From Candidatus Eiseniibacteriota bacterium (GTDB taxonomy: Bacteria; Eisenbacteria; RBG-16-71-46; SZUA-252), in assembly GCA_963703225.1 (NCBI GenBank), contig OY969801.1:804001-868000 (forward strand): a stretch of DNA of 64,000 bases, given 5' to 3'. Below are positions 6,564-10,580 of this stretch, piece after piece. Both the position numbers and the translations under genes were made by a program. The notes below the pieces were generated by a model that was given only the letters and a program-made list of their open reading frames with translations, searched no databases and was not told the DNA's origin. Every line of letters begins with the position of its first letter. The first letter of the stretch is position 1.

Positions 6564-7736
6564 ATGCCGAAGACGCCCAACAATCCTGAGCCGCCGCGAC
6601 GTCCTGCAGCCGCGGGGCGCCCCGCGCGCGCTGCCGTCGCCGCCGTGCCCGAGATCGACCACGAGCGGATCACCGATCCCGGGCCGTTGGGCAGCGAGGT
6701 CGATCTCGACCGCACCCTCCGCCCGCAGCGGCTCGAGGAGTTCGTGGGGCAGGAATCGCTCCGCGAGCAGCTCCGGATCGCGGTGGAGGCGGCGAGACAG
6801 CGCGGCGAGGCGCTGGACCACCTTCTCTTCCACGGCCCTCCCGGCCTGGGCAAGACCACCCTCGCGTCGATCATCGCGGCCGAGATGGACGTGCCGATCG
6901 TCCAGACCTCGGGGCCAGTTTTGGAACGGGCCGCCGACCTCGCGGGCCTTTTGACCAACCTCGAGTTCCGCTCCGTGCTCTTCATCGACGAGATCCACCG
7001 GATGAATCCGGTCGTCGAGGAGTATCTCTATCCCGCGATCGAGGACTTCTGCCTCGACATCATGATCGACCGGGGTCCCAGCGCGCGGAGCGTCCGGATC
7101 GACATCAAGCGATTCACATTGATCGGCGCCACGACGCGCACCGGCCTCCTGAGCGCGCCGCTCCGCGGCCGCTTTGGGATGAGCGCCCGGCTCGACTACT
7201 ACGCGCCCGAGGAATTGACGCGAATCATCCGCCGCTCGGCGAAAATCCTCGGCGTGCCGATCGACGCGGCCGGCGCCAAGGAGCTGGCCTCCCGCTCGCG
7301 CGGAACGCCGCGGGTGGGAAACCGCCTCCTGCGCCGCGTCCGGGACTACGCCGAGACGCGCGCCGACGGGAAGATCACCGAGGAGGTGGCTCGCGCCGCG
7401 CTCAAGCTTTTGGAAGTGGACGCGCGCGGCCTCGACGACATGGACCGCCGGATGCTCGAGGCAATCGTGGTCAAGTACGGCGGCGGCCCGGTCGGGCTCT
7501 CGACGATCGCCGTCGTGGTGGGAGAGGAGCCGGGAACGCTCGAGGACGTCTACGAGCCCTACCTGATCCAGGAGGGTTTCCTGAAGCGGACGGCGCGGGG
7601 CCGCGAGGCCACCGATCTCGCCTTCACCCACCTCGGCCTCACGCCACCCGACCGCGGCGCCTCCGCCGACCCGGCATTGGCGCGCCCCGAAGTGCCCGAA
7701 GAGGGCCCGGATACGCCTCAAAGCACGCTGTTCTGA
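6564..7736 (+). CDS. ruvB: Holliday junction branch migration helicase RuvB
   Basis: AAA+ Walker [10 protein letters not shown], Walker B LFIDEIH, sensor motifs; ~40-aa Ala/Pro-rich N-terminal extension. Confidence 0.9.
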
Positions 7737-7751
7737 CCCGCAAATATTTCC

Positions 7752-7783
7752 TTGAACCCGTACCATGGTACCGGGTCGATGAT
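7752..7783 (+). promoter_or_regulatory. MerR-type promoter/operator: TTGAAC followed directly by dyad CCGTAC-CATG-GTACCGG in a long (19-20 bp) spacer
   Basis: Perfect 12-bp palindrome GTACCATGGTAC at 7760-7771; half-site CCGTAC and the position immediately after the -35-like hexamer match, as recalled from the literature, the classical mer operator arrangement (TTGACT-CCGTAC..GTACGG); -10 element not clearly identifiable. Confidence 0.45.
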
Positions 7784-7798
7784 TCCAACCAGGTCGAT

Positions 7799-8227
7799 AT
7801 GAGCCAGAGATACCTGAGCAGCGGCGAGCTTGCCCGCGAGTCGGGCGTGAATTTGGAGACCCTCCGCTACTACGAGCGGCGGGATCTTCTGCCCCGGGTT
7901 GCGCGGACGGCAAGCGGACACCGGCGCTACGACCCTGAAGCGGTCTCACTCCTGAGGCTGATCAAGCGAGCCAAGGACCTCGGATTCACTCTCGCCGAGA
8001 TTCGGGGGCTGCTTCGAGGGCTCGAGCGTCCCAAAGCGGTCTGCGATGACGTCTGCCGGGTGATCGAAGCGAAAATCGGCCATTTGGATCAGGAGCTCAC
8101 GCGATTGAGGTCCCAGCGCGTACGGCTTTCGCGGTTACGGGATGACTGTCCGCGGACGCGGCCGTTGCGGGAGTGCCCGGTCGTCGTCGAGCTCAAGGGC
8201 GCCACACCAAGAAGGAGGAAACGATGA
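7799..8227 (+). CDS. MerR family metal-responsive transcriptional regulator (Cys82, Cys117, Cys126 present)
   Basis: 142 aa; N-terminal HTH (LSSGELARESGVNLETLRYYERRDLL), dimerisation helix, cysteines at 82, 86, 117, 126 by direct counting; matches positions of Hg-binding cysteines in Tn501 MerR (established knowledge). Confidence 0.8.
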   Translation: MSQRYLSSGELARESGVNLETLRYYERRDLLPRVARTASGHRRYDPEAVSLLRLIKRAKDLGFTLAEIRGLLRGLERPKAVCDDVCRVIEAKIGHLDQELTRLRSQRVRLSRLRDDCPRTRPLRECPVVVELKGATPRRRKR

Positions 8228-8340
8228 AACGAATCGTGCTGATGCTGCTCACAATCGGGCTCATCGTGGCGAACGACGCAGTGTCGTGGGGGTCGACCGT
8301 GGCGAATGCTTGCCCAGGGAAGTGCCCGTTCTGCCCCTGA
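8224..8340 (+). CDS. small Cys-rich peptide (38 aa), hydrophobic N-terminus plus C-terminal CPGKCPFCP motif; not in supplied ORF track
   Basis: ATG at 8224 overlaps merR stop (ATGA coupling); MKRIVLMLLTIGLIVANDAVSWGSTVANACPGKCPFCP*; G/C-rich third positions; followed by strong hairpin terminator. Confidence 0.45.
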   Translation: MKRIVLMLLTIGLIVANDAVSWGSTVANACPGKCPFCP

Positions 8341-8361
8341 ACGGAAAGAAGGGCGAAATCC

Positions 8362-8397
8362 GGCCGGCGGCCAGATTTGGTCGCCGGCCCTTTCATT
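8362..8397 (+). terminator. intrinsic terminator-like hairpin after the small peptide gene
   Basis: 8-bp GC stem GGCCGGCG / CGCCGGCC with 12-nt loop, followed by CTTTCATT. Confidence 0.5.
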
Positions 8398-8531
8398 CCC
8401 AGATAGAATTTGCGCGCCTGTCCCTCTAGTCGCGCTGCACTGAACTGAGGGCGTGGAAGCCCCTTGTCACAACCGGACGCGTTCACCGGTTCCTAGGTGA
8501 GAAAGACGTCCGTGAAAAGGAGGGTCGGAGG

Positions 8532-9419
8532 ATGCAGGGCCGTATCCCGGTTGCAGTCGCCATCGCCGCGATGCTGTGCATTCCCTTAAGCAGGATTGTG
8601 CCCTCGGCGCTGGCGGAACCGCTCCCGCCGAACCAGCGCGACCGCGAGGACGGAATTCCGACCTCGATGCTGGGGTCCTATGTTCAACGCCACGAGCTCT
8701 TGATCTATCCCTCCTACGAATACGTGACCGATCACAACATGGAGTACAACCCTGCAAACCTGGGCTACGGGCTGCAGGAGGATTTCCGCGGAAAGTTTCG
8801 CTCGTCCTCGGGAGGGATCTTCTTTGCTTACGGGGTTACTCGCAAGATCGCGCTGGAGTTCGAGACGGCGTACGAGAAGGCGTCACTCGAGAAGTCTCCC
8901 AGCGACCCATCGACGACTCCCGGCGAGATCAAGGAATCGGGGCTAGCCGACATCGAAGGACAAGTTCGGATCCGGCTGGCCGAGGAGCGCCGCAAGCGGC
9001 CGGAGATATACACGTTCGTCGAAATCACCGCGCCCACCCAGAGAGACGCGCTCCTTATCGGGAGCCCGGACTGGGATGCGCGCCCGGGCATCGGGTTGAT
9101 TCACGGATACCCCTGGGGCACGATGACGATCTGGTCCACGCTCGAGTACAACCGGGAACAGTCGGCCATCCAGGAACCGGCGCACTTCGATATCGGAGAG
9201 ACGGCCATCGAGTACCTGAGGCGCTTTTCGCGGTCCTGGCTGTTCAGCATGGCGTGGGAAGGCGGCGAAGGGGGTGCGCCAGACGAGTGGGAGCTGCGCA
9301 CCGGGATCCAGGGGCCCCTCGCCCATTGGGCGCACTTGAAGATCATCAACTCGGTGGGAGTCTTCTCGAAGTCTCCCGACTGGACGCTGCAAGCCGGGTT
9401 GATGTTCACCATGAAGTGA
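8532..9419 (+). CDS. secreted hypothetical protein
   Basis: 295 aa; AGGAGG-like RBS; N-terminal signal peptide (AVAIAAMLCIPLSRIVPSALA); no recognised catalytic motif. Confidence 0.55.
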   Translation: MQGRIPVAVAIAAMLCIPLSRIVPSALAEPLPPNQRDREDGIPTSMLGSYVQRHELLIYPSYEYVTDHNMEYNPANLGYGLQEDFRGKFRSSSGGIFFAYGVTRKIALEFETAYEKASLEKSPSDPSTTPGEIKESGLADIEGQVRIRLAEERRKRPEIYTFVEITAPTQRDALLIGSPDWDARPGIGLIHGYPWGTMTIWSTLEYNREQSAIQEPAHFDIGETAIEYLRRFSRSWLFSMAWEGGEGGAPDEWELRTGIQGPLAHWAHLKIINSVGVFSKSPDWTLQAGLMFTMK

Positions 9420-9479
9420 GATCACGGCTGGCCACTCCCGAAGAGGCGGGGACCGCCCAAATGGTCTAAGGTCGGAGTA

Positions 9480-10580
9480 TTGAAAACCTCCGACTTCGAT
9501 TACGACCTTCCCAAAGAACGGATCGCGCAGCACCCGGCGGCGACCCGCGACGCGTCCCGCCTCTTGATCCTCGATCGCGCGAGCGGCGCGATCGCCCACA
9601 GGACCTTCCGCGACCTCCCCGAGTTCCTGCGCCCGGGCGATCTTCTGGTCGTCAACGACACGCGGGTGATTCCGGCGCGGCTCTTTGGGCGGCTCCACCC
9701 CGAGCCCGGGGGCGAGGGCCGCGGGGGCGTGCCGAGCACCGCGAGCCAACCGACCCCGGACCGCGAAATCGAGCTGCTCCTCCTCCGCGAAGAGCCGGCG
9801 GTGGCGCCGGAGCGGATCTGGTCCGCGCTCGCCAAACCCGCCCGCGCGCTCCACCCCGGCGCCATCGTGCGCTTTGTCGATCCCTCCTACGAAGCCGCCA
9901 TCATCTCGATTGGAGAGCGGGGCGTCCGCCGCGTCTCCTTCCGCCCCGCCCAGGACGCCACCTTTCCGTTCGAGGTCTGGCTCGCCCGCGTTGGGCACGT
10001 GCCGCTGCCTCCCTACATCGATCGCTCCGACGAGCCGGGCGACCGCGAGCGCTACCAGACGATCTTCGCCCGCGAAGGTGGATCGGTGGCGGCCCCCACC
10101 GCGGGGCTTCACTTCACCGACGAGACTCTCGCGGCGGTCCGCTCCAGAGGAGCAGCCGTCGAGACCGTGACCCTCCACGTCGGTGCGGGCACGTTTCGGC
10201 CCGTGGCCACCGAAGACCCCGCCGAGCACCTGCTCGACCCCGAGCCCTATCGCGTGCCGCCCGAGACCGCGGCGGCGCTCCAAGCCAACCTGGGCCGCGT
10301 GATCGCCGTGGGCACGACTTCGGTCCGGACCCTCGAGTCGTGGGCCCTCGACGGCCGGCTCGACGACGGCGCGTGGCGTGAGACCGGCCTCTTCATCCTT
10401 CCCCCGTTCCGCTTTCAAGTCGTCCAGGGGCTCGTCACCAACTTCCACCTGCCCCGCTCGAGCCTCCTCATGCTGGTCTGCGCGTTCGCCGGCCGCGAAC
10501 CGGTCCTCGCCGCCTACAACACCGCGGTCCGCGAGGGCTACCGCTTCTATTCCTACGGAGACGCGATGCTGATCCTGTAG
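9480..10580 (+). CDS. queA: tRNA preQ1(34) S-adenosylmethionine ribosyltransferase-isomerase QueA
   Basis: 366 aa; N-terminal MKTSDFDYDLPKERIAQHP and C-terminal GYRFYSYGDAMLIL typical of QueA; TTG start. Confidence 0.9.
   Translation: MKTSDFDYDLPKERIAQHPAATRDASRLLILDRASGAIAHRTFRDLPEFLRPGDLLVVNDTRVIPARLFGRLHPEPGGEGRGGVPSTASQPTPDREIELLLLREEPAVAPERIWSALAKPARALHPGAIVRFVDPSYEAAIISIGERGVRRVSFRPAQDATFPFEVWLARVGHVPLPPYIDRSDEPGDRERYQTIFAREGGSVAAPTAGLHFTDETLAAVRSRGAAVETVTLHVGAGTFRPVATEDPAEHLLDPEPYRVPPETAAALQANLGRVIAVGTTSVRTLESWALDGRLDDGAWRETGLFILPPFRFQVVQGLVTNFHLPRSSLLMLVCAFAGREPVLAAYNTAVREGYRFYSYGDAMLIL

Follow-up and report, generated by a model that had tools for sequence, protein, structure and literature searches.

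A conserved tri-cysteine peptide gene coupled to a MerR-family regulator in Candidatus Eiseniibacteriota

The described systems closest to the gene pair analyzed here are mercury resistance (mer) operons, cis-acting metal sensors of the CutF type, and cassettes in which an exported pre-peptide is encoded next to a regulator. MerE, a short product of mer operons, has a Cys-Pro-Cys motif, and methanobactin and bufferin are precedents for metal ligands derived from cysteine. In Rap-Phr cassettes, precursors of ~38–44 residues are encoded by an open reading frame (ORF) that overlaps the end of the regulator gene. The mer signal has been described by Permina et al. (PMC1526738) as TCCGTAC-4-GTACGGA with a 19-bp spacer in proteobacteria, and as ACCGTGTAC-4-GTACAGGGT with a 20-bp spacer in firmicutes, whose mer operons begin with merR; for ZntR, that study gives a consensus unlike these mer signals. 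CutF-like proteins have been defined by a length of less than 150 residues, an N-terminal signal peptide, a Cys/His metal motif and a PP dipeptide within the last 15 residues (PMC9973294). Here, we describe a locus in a stretch of 64,000 nucleotides (hereafter, the window) of contig OY969801.1 from a Candidatus Eiseniibacteriota bacterium, in which a merR gene is followed by a 38-codon ORF for a peptide with a hydrophobic N-terminus and the C-terminal tail C30-P-G-K-C34-P-F-C37-P38.

The peptide ORF belongs to a real, conserved gene family whose tail is under purifying selection, and it recurs directly behind merR in surroundings that otherwise differ. Our preferred interpretation, held with slightly better than even confidence, is that merR and the peptide gene form an autoregulated cassette, whose product would be a metal-induced, exported tri-thiol metal ligand resembling a minimal MerP. 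A preliminary description of this locus had read the ORF, its translation, the overlap with the merR stop codon, the GC-biased third codon positions, the downstream terminator and the Cys/Pro tail correctly. It had also called the peptide unannotated, which holds in the sense that no name or family is on record, but the identical 38-residue product (P0001) is already gene-called in NCBI and ENA (P numbers denote family members and L numbers loci).

A gene family with an invariant tri-cysteine tail

A phmmer search of 1.84 billion representative proteins returned 13 clusters of 37–39 residues with the same architecture, one of them called with a 70-residue N-terminal extension, together with two spurious repeat proteins. 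Searches with a query extended upstream to 55 residues and with a 40-residue member found only three and two proteins, respectively. With cluster members and scans of DNA included, the family consists of 34 distinct sequences of 34–40 residues, most of them 37–39. In an alignment of 15 sequences, C30, C34, C37 and P38 are invariant, while M1, R3, W22, P31 and P35 are conserved at 90% or more; conservation of the cysteine spacing had been proposed as a check on the peptide, and it is borne out here. Across all 34 members, the three cysteines and the final proline are essentially invariant, and R3 and W22 are nearly so.

The tail was also searched for as DNA. A pattern back-translated from CPGKCP[F/L]CP-stop matched three sites in 596 Gb of genomes, compared to ~0.1 expected by our own estimate under uniform composition. 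All three are located in metagenome-assembled genomes (MAGs) of Candidatus Eisenbacteria (now Candidatus Eiseniibacteriota), each directly behind a merR gene. The same pattern was found on eight metagenome contigs, which come from soil, farmland and groundwater, going by the record names.

The ratio of nonsynonymous to synonymous differences per site (pN/pS; Nei-Gojobori, 13 loci) is 0.59 for residues 2–16 and 0.66 for residues 17–29. For tail residues 30–38 it is 0.07 at a near-saturated pS of 0.67, a value inflated by ascertainment: 11 loci came from the pattern, which demands the motif. The tails of the loci from the protein search (L002, L003, L015, L016 and L020) also vary only synonymously.

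The start codon (8224–8226) overlaps the merR stop codon (8225–8227) as ATGA, and the GC contents of the three codon positions of the ORF are 0.51, 0.51 and 0.79. A GGAGG sequence is present 6–10 nt before the peptide start at every locus. In the window, it lies in arginine codons of a rare type (Table 1): AGR accounts for 10.6% of the arginine codons in long ORFs of the window, yet for three of the last four arginine codons of merR. A GC-rich hairpin follows 15–25 nt past the stop codon in nearly all loci, with clear T-runs in several of them, and its stem sequences vary from locus to locus. The hairpin of the window is the sole terminator-like site within 7600–8700.

These comparative data dispose of the notion of a chance ORF or a functionless fossil, whose probability we regard as negligible. 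The ORF is very short, and one locus type (L009/L013) has only a 12-codon remnant, as a fossil would. However, 34 conserved sequences, purifying selection on the tail, a conserved Shine-Dalgarno sequence in rare codons, a terminator and the coupling to merR have already refuted it.

Scans of the peptide against Pfam and NCBIfam gave no family at E≤1, a profile search of the PDB gave no significant match, and Rfam gave no family over 7500–8700. The literature searched contained no description of the tail motif or of small exported peptides linked to merR. The earlier impression that the peptide belongs to no described family is in agreement with the Pfam, NCBIfam and PDB results.

Several members depart from the common form. 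In a second subfamily (P0013, P0017 and P0029), the first and second cysteines are one residue closer together (C-P-x-C-P-F-C-P), and a divergent subgroup (P0015, P0030 and P0031, at L016–L019) has the tail CPGPCQLCP. At L011, a copy of the subfamily type (1399–1506, oriented) is found 450 nt downstream of the standard copy, past a gene for a DF-family thioredoxin-fold protein; it is readable only with two frameshifts and may be a pseudogene or an assembly error. In the source records, members are nameless, labeled "hypothetical protein" or misnamed: the 40-residue member P0027 (JGI/IMG) carries the source name "2-iminoacetate synthase ThiH", a mis-annotation that is probably due to the C-x3-C-x-Phe-C spacing, which mimics a radical-SAM cluster motif.

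A stretch of the peptide gene (8318–8331; GKCPF, GGAAGTGCCCGTTC) is alike at 12 of 14 nucleotides to one in merR (8169–8182; RECPV, GGGAGTGCCCGGTC). Derivation of the tail from the MerR loop was considered and rejected, as this similarity is at chance level (~1 such match expected by our own estimate). The cassette was found to be bordered by neither direct repeats nor target-site duplications.

Regulator, operator and genomic contexts

Of 20 distinct locus types, ~19 have merR directly before the peptide gene; the two genes usually share 4 nt and are otherwise no more than 3 nt apart. The preliminary description had named synteny with merR as a test of the peptide, and this association holds. 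The regulator has the HTH and coiled-coil dimerization architecture of MerR proteins. Among proteins of known structure, its best relative is Bacillus Hg(II)-MerR (4UA1, E = 6e-24), followed by CadR and PbrR (~1e-15) and CueR (1e-13). Its three cysteines (Table 1) align without gaps on the mercury ligands C79, C114 and C123 of 4UA1, the aligned segments being AVCDD/AKCRD and CPRTRPLRECP/CPENKDIYECP (query/4UA1). The loop CPRTRPLRECP is kept across loci; the MerR of L005 (1214–1645) differs in having Ser in place of the last ligand Cys (CPQPLPLRRSP). NCBIfam scores are 95.2 bits for MerR (TIGR02051), 88 for CadR-PbrR, 86 for ZntR and 79 for CueR, all of which miss the equivalog cutoffs (150.85 for TIGR02051), and this weighs against a firm assignment to mercury.

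The operator/promoter layout of the window (Table 1) is found in the same register upstream of merR at seven other loci. We confirmed the mer operator TTGACT-CCGTAC-ATGA-GTACGG-AAG-TAAGGT as the merR-merT intergenic region of R100/Tn21; the CCGTAC-N4-GTAC core of the cassette has the same sequence and position as in Tn21/R100 merO. The signals of CueR, CadR and PbrR are different dyads. The cassette operator fits the mer signals, and not the ZntR consensus, of PMC1526738. Judged from its sequence, the cassette combines a mer-type operator with a firmicute-type organization. The partner regulator appears to be mercury-type, and our leading candidate for the inducer is Hg(II). Induction by Pb, Cd or Zn is also possible, and these metals are kept as options because of the sub-cutoff NCBIfam scores and the P1B-2 ATPase gene found at L015.

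Several neighborhoods contain other genes related to metals or thiols. At L015, the P1B-2 ATPase is of the Zn/Cd/Hg/Pb type (above the TIGR01512 cutoff) and is accompanied by DUF302 and CsoR-like genes. At L005, the region upstream of the cassette (48–1029) encodes another MerR-family regulator, whose metal loop is CxC-x5-C, as well as a Thioredoxin_3 protein (CPCC), and includes a frameshifted ORF for a membrane protein (CPLC); together, these look like a mer-like cluster. A secreted fusion of HMA (GxNCGNC) and thioredoxin (WCGPC) domains is encoded 65 nt downstream of the peptide gene at L005 (1823–2488), and the same fusion lies immediately downstream at L006 (1417–2205, − strand); both loci are from Eisenbacteria MAGs. 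This fusion is a candidate periplasmic reductase or metallochaperone partner of the peptide, and could serve in thiol reduction or metal acceptance. L006 also has a CzcA/CusA-like RND pump (recognized by eye only), a BlaI/CopY-like repressor with an adjoining 387-residue ORF that we read by eye as BlaR1/M56-like, and a PF13557/COG4313 barrel near the cassette. Convergent ArsC-like and MIP genes are found at L026, and the DF-family thioredoxin-fold protein and second peptide copy of L011 have been described above. The type of MerR and several of these neighborhoods point to soft-metal stress, and we therefore favor a thiol metal-binding role for the peptide.

Elsewhere, the flanks have little in common. 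The cassette of the window lies between ruvB upstream and genes for an outer-membrane barrel and queA downstream. Its counterparts are flanked by unrelated convergent genes (L003), by a gene for an LVIVD-repeat protein (L004), by an integrase gene (L014), and by CHRD and chagasin-like genes (L024). The differing flanks, along with a terminator of its own, indicate that merR and the peptide gene make up a self-contained cassette of two genes.

The same gene order bears on a role for the peptide as a cis-acting sensor like CutF, CruR or CopL, in which metal-dependent stalling of the nascent chain would control a downstream gene. The predicted signal peptide, the CxxxC motif, the Pro-containing C-terminus ending in Pro-stop, and the stem-loop just downstream would all suit such a sensor, which we nevertheless regard as very improbable. 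The peptide has no PP dipeptide and no match to DUF2946. As a terminator located ~140 nt ahead of the next Shine-Dalgarno sequence, the stem-loop leaves that sequence unmasked, and the next gene is on the opposite strand at L003, L014, L016–L023 and L026 (at least seven locus types). Moreover, with an exit tunnel holding ~30–40 residues, the Cys motif would still be inside the ribosome at the end of translation, which would preclude co-translational sensing of periplasmic metal. Gene order thus largely refutes a CutF-like function.

Some loci have only part of the cassette or a different record of it. At L009 (1086–1124) and the equivalent site of L013, only the last 12 codons (MRSCPGKCPFCP), the stop codon and the terminator are left, adjoining a divergent HTH gene that by eye is excisionase/MerR-like; this looks like a cassette truncated by rearrangement or insertion. 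In the ENA assembly of the organism of the window (L001), ruvB and merR are fused into one called gene of 527 residues with RuvB and MerR domains (8421–10004). The fusion stems from a shift of reading frame close to the end of ruvB, probably through an indel of 1 nt, while the window has separate genes in different frames; one of the two records probably contains an assembly error.

Table 1. Positions of cassette features and of the downstream barrel gene in the window.
Feature	Position	Strand	Details and basis
Cassette promoter/operator	7752–7783	+	−35 TTGAAC (7752–7757), 20-nt spacer, −10-like GATGAT (7778–7783)
Operator dyad ACCCGTAC-CATG-GTACCGGGT	7756–7776	+	Perfect palindrome GTACCATGGTAC (7760–7771)
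merR, 142-residue MerR-family metalloregulator	7799–8227	+	Pfam MerR_1, MerR, MerR-DNA-bind; Cys82, Cys116, Cys125
Shine-Dalgarno sequence AGGAGG of the peptide gene	8213–8218	+	5 nt before ATG; AGA/AGG Arg codons of the merR tail
Peptide gene, 38 codons and TGA	8224–8340	+	Product MKRIVLMLLTIGLIVANDAVSWGSTVANACPGKCPFCP; ORF reading, homologues, alignment
Predicted Sec signal peptide, residues 1–23	8224–8292	+	MKR, core IVLMLLTIGLIVA, c-region NDAVSWG; rule-based
Predicted mature 15-mer STVANACPGKCPFCP	8293–8337	+	Cleavage site judged by rules
Invariant tri-cysteine tail CPGKCPFCP	8311–8337	+	Alignment, pN/pS
Intrinsic terminator	8362–8399	+	Hairpin with 12-bp stem (8362–8389), then T-rich tail CTTTCATTCC
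Secreted protein of 295 residues, no Pfam/NCBIfam match	8532–9419	+	AlphaFold2 model

Predicted export and function of the peptide

Signal peptide features were judged by rules on the 34 family members, with cleavage site statistics from 33 of them. The N-terminus reads M-[KR]-R and continues with an uncharged core of 13–14 residues (18 in four members), after which N/D or S/T is usually followed by A-x-x-W-A. At the site after W-x, position −1 is Ala in 26 of the 33, Val in five and Gly in one, and position −3 is Thr, Ser, Ala or Val in 30. Six variable residues lie between this W-A site and the tail C-P-G-K-C-P-[F/L]-C-P, and a cut at the site would leave 15 residues in 29 of the 33 members. 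The N-terminus is probably a cleavable Sec signal peptide and the product a free 15-mer. As the precursor has only 38 residues, export must be post-translational; precursors of such size can be Sec substrates, as exemplified by Phr peptides.

Other routes of export were rejected. There is no lipobox before Cys30 (−1 is A, S or G in 29 of 34 members, −2 mostly K, Q or N, and −3 rarely L, V or I), and the hydrophobic core stops ~13 residues before this cysteine. With respect to a Tat signal, the predominance of KR, the three-residue n-region and the very hydrophobic core speak for Sec.

The preliminary description had offered a signal peptide or a membrane anchor for the N-terminus. The short core, the polar N/D and the T/S-W-A site favor the first over a permanent anchor. 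If left uncleaved, the peptide would span the membrane once (N-in, C-out) and its tail would capture metal on the periplasmic side of the inner membrane, either handing it to a transporter or holding it at the surface, in a first step similar to that of MerT, MerE or MerF. A membrane-anchored thiol metal-binding peptide had been suggested in the preliminary description; this arrangement seems unlikely to us. Trp22 is nearly invariant and typical of membrane interfaces, residues 4–22 could span 19 positions, and the N-terminal KR agrees with the positive-inside rule. However, the uncharged core has just 13–14 residues and is followed by N/D in most members, and the −3/−1 pattern after W suits signal peptidase I, as in MerP. 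Among ~20 contexts, there is no conserved transporter partner; furthermore, import of mercury without MerA would be harmful, and the window contains no MerA motif.

Together, the regulator and the predicted export suggest how the cassette might work as a source of an exported metal ligand. A thiophilic metal ion in the cytoplasm would bind the three-cysteine site of the MerR dimer on the CCGTAC-N4-GTAC dyad, and the metal-bound regulator would remodel the promoter with its 20-bp spacer, leading to transcription of merR and the peptide gene. The peptide would be made by translational coupling, through the ATGA overlap and the strong internal Shine-Dalgarno sequence, then exported post-translationally by Sec and cut by signal peptidase I after T/S-W-A(G). 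A peptide of ~15 residues would thereby be freed into the periplasm, where the thiols of C-x3-C-x2-C, each with a following Pro, may chelate the metal. The peptide would thus be a fold-less counterpart of the loop with which MerP binds metal, and the result would be protection of the sequestration type outside the cytoplasm, with no reductase. Three thiolates within eight residues could provide the geometry for linear or trigonal Hg(II), and also for Pb(II), Cd(II), Cu(I) or As(III).

The short, variable N-terminal part and the invariant Cys-rich C-terminal core would also be expected of a precursor of a ribosomally made, modified peptide, such as a thiol-derived metallophore, with its enzymes encoded elsewhere. 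The preliminary description had raised such a precursor as its second option, and the contexts lend it no support: at ~20 loci no modifying enzyme is conserved beside the gene, merR being the sole constant neighbor, and the cassette closes with its own terminator. Moreover, the putative leader resembles a Sec signal peptide rather than a recognition leader, and scans of Pfam and NCBIfam gave no match to families of ribosomally synthesized and post-translationally modified peptides. We consider this origin improbable.

Similarly, a small Sec pre-peptide ORF that overlaps the 3′ end of a regulator gene calls to mind an exported signaling peptide of the Rap-Phr or NprR-NprX style, which would be re-imported to modulate MerR or another receptor. 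Here, the MerR is minimal, with 142 residues and no peptide-binding tetratricopeptide repeat (TPR) domain. The core of the peptide is near-invariant across lineages that are ~50% different elsewhere, which is the opposite of pherotype diversification, and the invariance sits on the three cysteines. A signaling function is accordingly very doubtful in our estimate, on a par with a CutF-like one.

The tail could also bind a cofactor other than mercury, either an Fe-S cluster or heme through the three Cys-Pro dipeptides, Cys-Pro being a heme-regulatory motif. The C-x3-C-x-Phe-C spacing equals the radical-SAM [4Fe-4S] motif CX3CX2C, the only PDB matches to the tail are radical-SAM cluster motifs (non-significant, E = 3.3), and the JGI name of one member is "ThiH". 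The peptide has no radical-SAM domain, the agreement being confined to the spacing of the motif. Since Sec exports unfolded chains, a cluster assembled in the cytoplasm could not go along, and both the partner regulator and the neighborhoods indicate soft metals. We regard cofactor binding of this kind as extremely improbable.

Several observations weigh against an exported, metal-binding tri-thiol peptide as we propose it. The cleavage site rests on rules and not on a trained predictor, and the near-invariance of Trp22 could also be accounted for by an uncleaved anchor with this residue at the membrane interface. In an oxidizing periplasm, three free thiols could form a disulfide, and a thioredoxin-type partner neighbors the cassette at only two loci. 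No HMA, MerA redox or CPC ATPase motif was found within the 64-kb window, and the window, L003, L004 and L024 are without another metal gene nearby. In the P0015 subgroup (L016–L019), the peptide gene is without an adjacent merR and follows two GNAT acetyltransferase genes; in one of its members, P0031, the middle Cys is replaced by Ser.

A stronger form of the proposal is that the merR-peptide pair is a complete, reductase-free resistance determinant for mercury or soft metals, in which sensing of metal triggers secretion of a 15-residue tri-thiol chelator, made by the ribosome and left unmodified. We put this forward tentatively, as a possibility that is distinctly less probable than the exported ligand as such. 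If true, mer effectors would include a new class, a "secreted phytochelatin/metallophore" that is genetically encoded. If the peptide is indeed an exported metal ligand, no smaller effector is known from a metal response under MerR control. It would then add a gene type to merA, B, C, D, E, F, G, P, T and R, from an uncultured soil phylum, and would offer protection from thiophilic metals at a cost of ~650 bp and no enzyme. Eisenbacteria have been found to be abundant in some Hg-affected paddy soils (PMC10349881). The nine-residue CP-x-x-CP-x-CP motif may be of use in metal-binding chemistry, biosensing and bioremediation, and merR with its promoter may serve as a compact sensor-plus-promoter part. 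The family is also a further example of functional genes that are too short for the cutoffs applied in ORF tracks and family databases.

The gene downstream of the cassette (Table 1) encodes a protein that was modeled by AlphaFold2 as a 12-stranded outer-membrane barrel (predicted local distance difference test score, pLDDT, 89.5; predicted template modeling score, pTM, 0.82). The best PDB matches of the model are the polypeptide transporter FapF (E = 5e-12, TM-score ~0.6) and the COG4313 channel 4RL8. The protein is a member of a conserved, uncharacterized family from Eisenbacteria, Calditrichia and Gemmatimonadales, its closest named homologues being from Eisenbacteria MAGs. Release of the peptide to the medium through an outer-membrane channel of the FapF/COG4313 type is conceivable, as one adjoins the cassette in the window and at L006, but this role has no support. 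The barrel was rejected as a part of the cassette, as its homologues in other genomes are found without merR and the peptide gene alongside, and its sequence is unrelated to that of the PF13557 barrel of L006. Ahead of the barrel gene, at 8465–8500, an AACCGG-N9-CCGGTT inverted repeat follows a TTGTCA hexamer (identified by eye); since it lacks the GTAC dyad, this repeat does not represent a cassette-type MerR site.

Comparison with described systems

The peptide recalls MerP in several respects. Like MerP, it would be under MerR control, has a predicted Sec signal peptide ending in x-W-A (V-W-A in Tn21 MerP), and would be exported with a C-x-x-C-P pair (CAACP in MerP, CPFCP in the peptide); the presumed task is the same, namely binding of Hg(II) outside the cytoplasm. 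However, the mature part of the peptide has ~15 residues, compared to 72 in MerP, and is without the HMA fold. It has three cysteines instead of two and lacks the GMT of the GMTCxxC loop, and it is unaccompanied by MerT or MerA. MerP/HMA profiles (PF00403 and TIGR02052) gave no match to the peptide at E≤1. We also considered whether the peptide is a truncated MerP. A MerP cut after CAACP would have 37 residues, and HMMER aligns WA with WA and PG-C-x-x-CP. The family profile scores MerP at 6–9 bits, a range reached by 47 of 500 decoys in which the mature part was shuffled, and this derivation was rejected.

Short, hydrophobic, Cys-bearing mer products are also represented by MerE, MerF and MerT with its CC pair (mer functions listed in PMC8261052). 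MerE and MerF differ in that their cysteines are held in two or three helices and serve the import of mercury for MerA, whereas the peptide has one short hydrophobic segment and a predicted extracytoplasmic tail. No similarity to MerE or MerF was detected, as phmmer returned only the family of 37–39 residues.

With CutF-like/DUF2946 proteins, the peptide shares a small size (38 residues), a signal-peptide-like N-terminus and a CxxxC motif (CPGKC), in accordance with the size and motif that define that group. A C-terminal Pro, a downstream stem-loop and contexts of metal homeostasis are further similarities. It differs in having three Pro in its last eight residues, with PP in 0 of 34 members, and in the location of its gene downstream of a regulator rather than upstream of an effector; a terminator, and often a convergent gene, comes next. 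Rap-Phr cassettes resemble the locus in that a Sec pre-peptide gene of ~38–44 codons overlaps the end of the regulator gene. In contrast to these systems, the regulator is a metal-sensing MerR and not an RNPP protein, and the core of the peptide is invariant and Cys-based.

In its organization, the cassette resembles mer operons of the Gram-positive type, in which merR comes first and is co-transcribed with the effector, with a 9-4-9 dyad of the GTAC-N4-GTAC form in a 20-bp spacer; the nearest solved MerR is likewise from Bacillus. The difference lies in the structural genes: the cassette has only the 38-codon peptide gene, with no merT, merP, merA or merB in the cassette or the 64 kb. Thus, while a MerR-controlled operon with an extracytoplasmic thiol ligand is a known kind of system, its effector here is a new, fold-less family.

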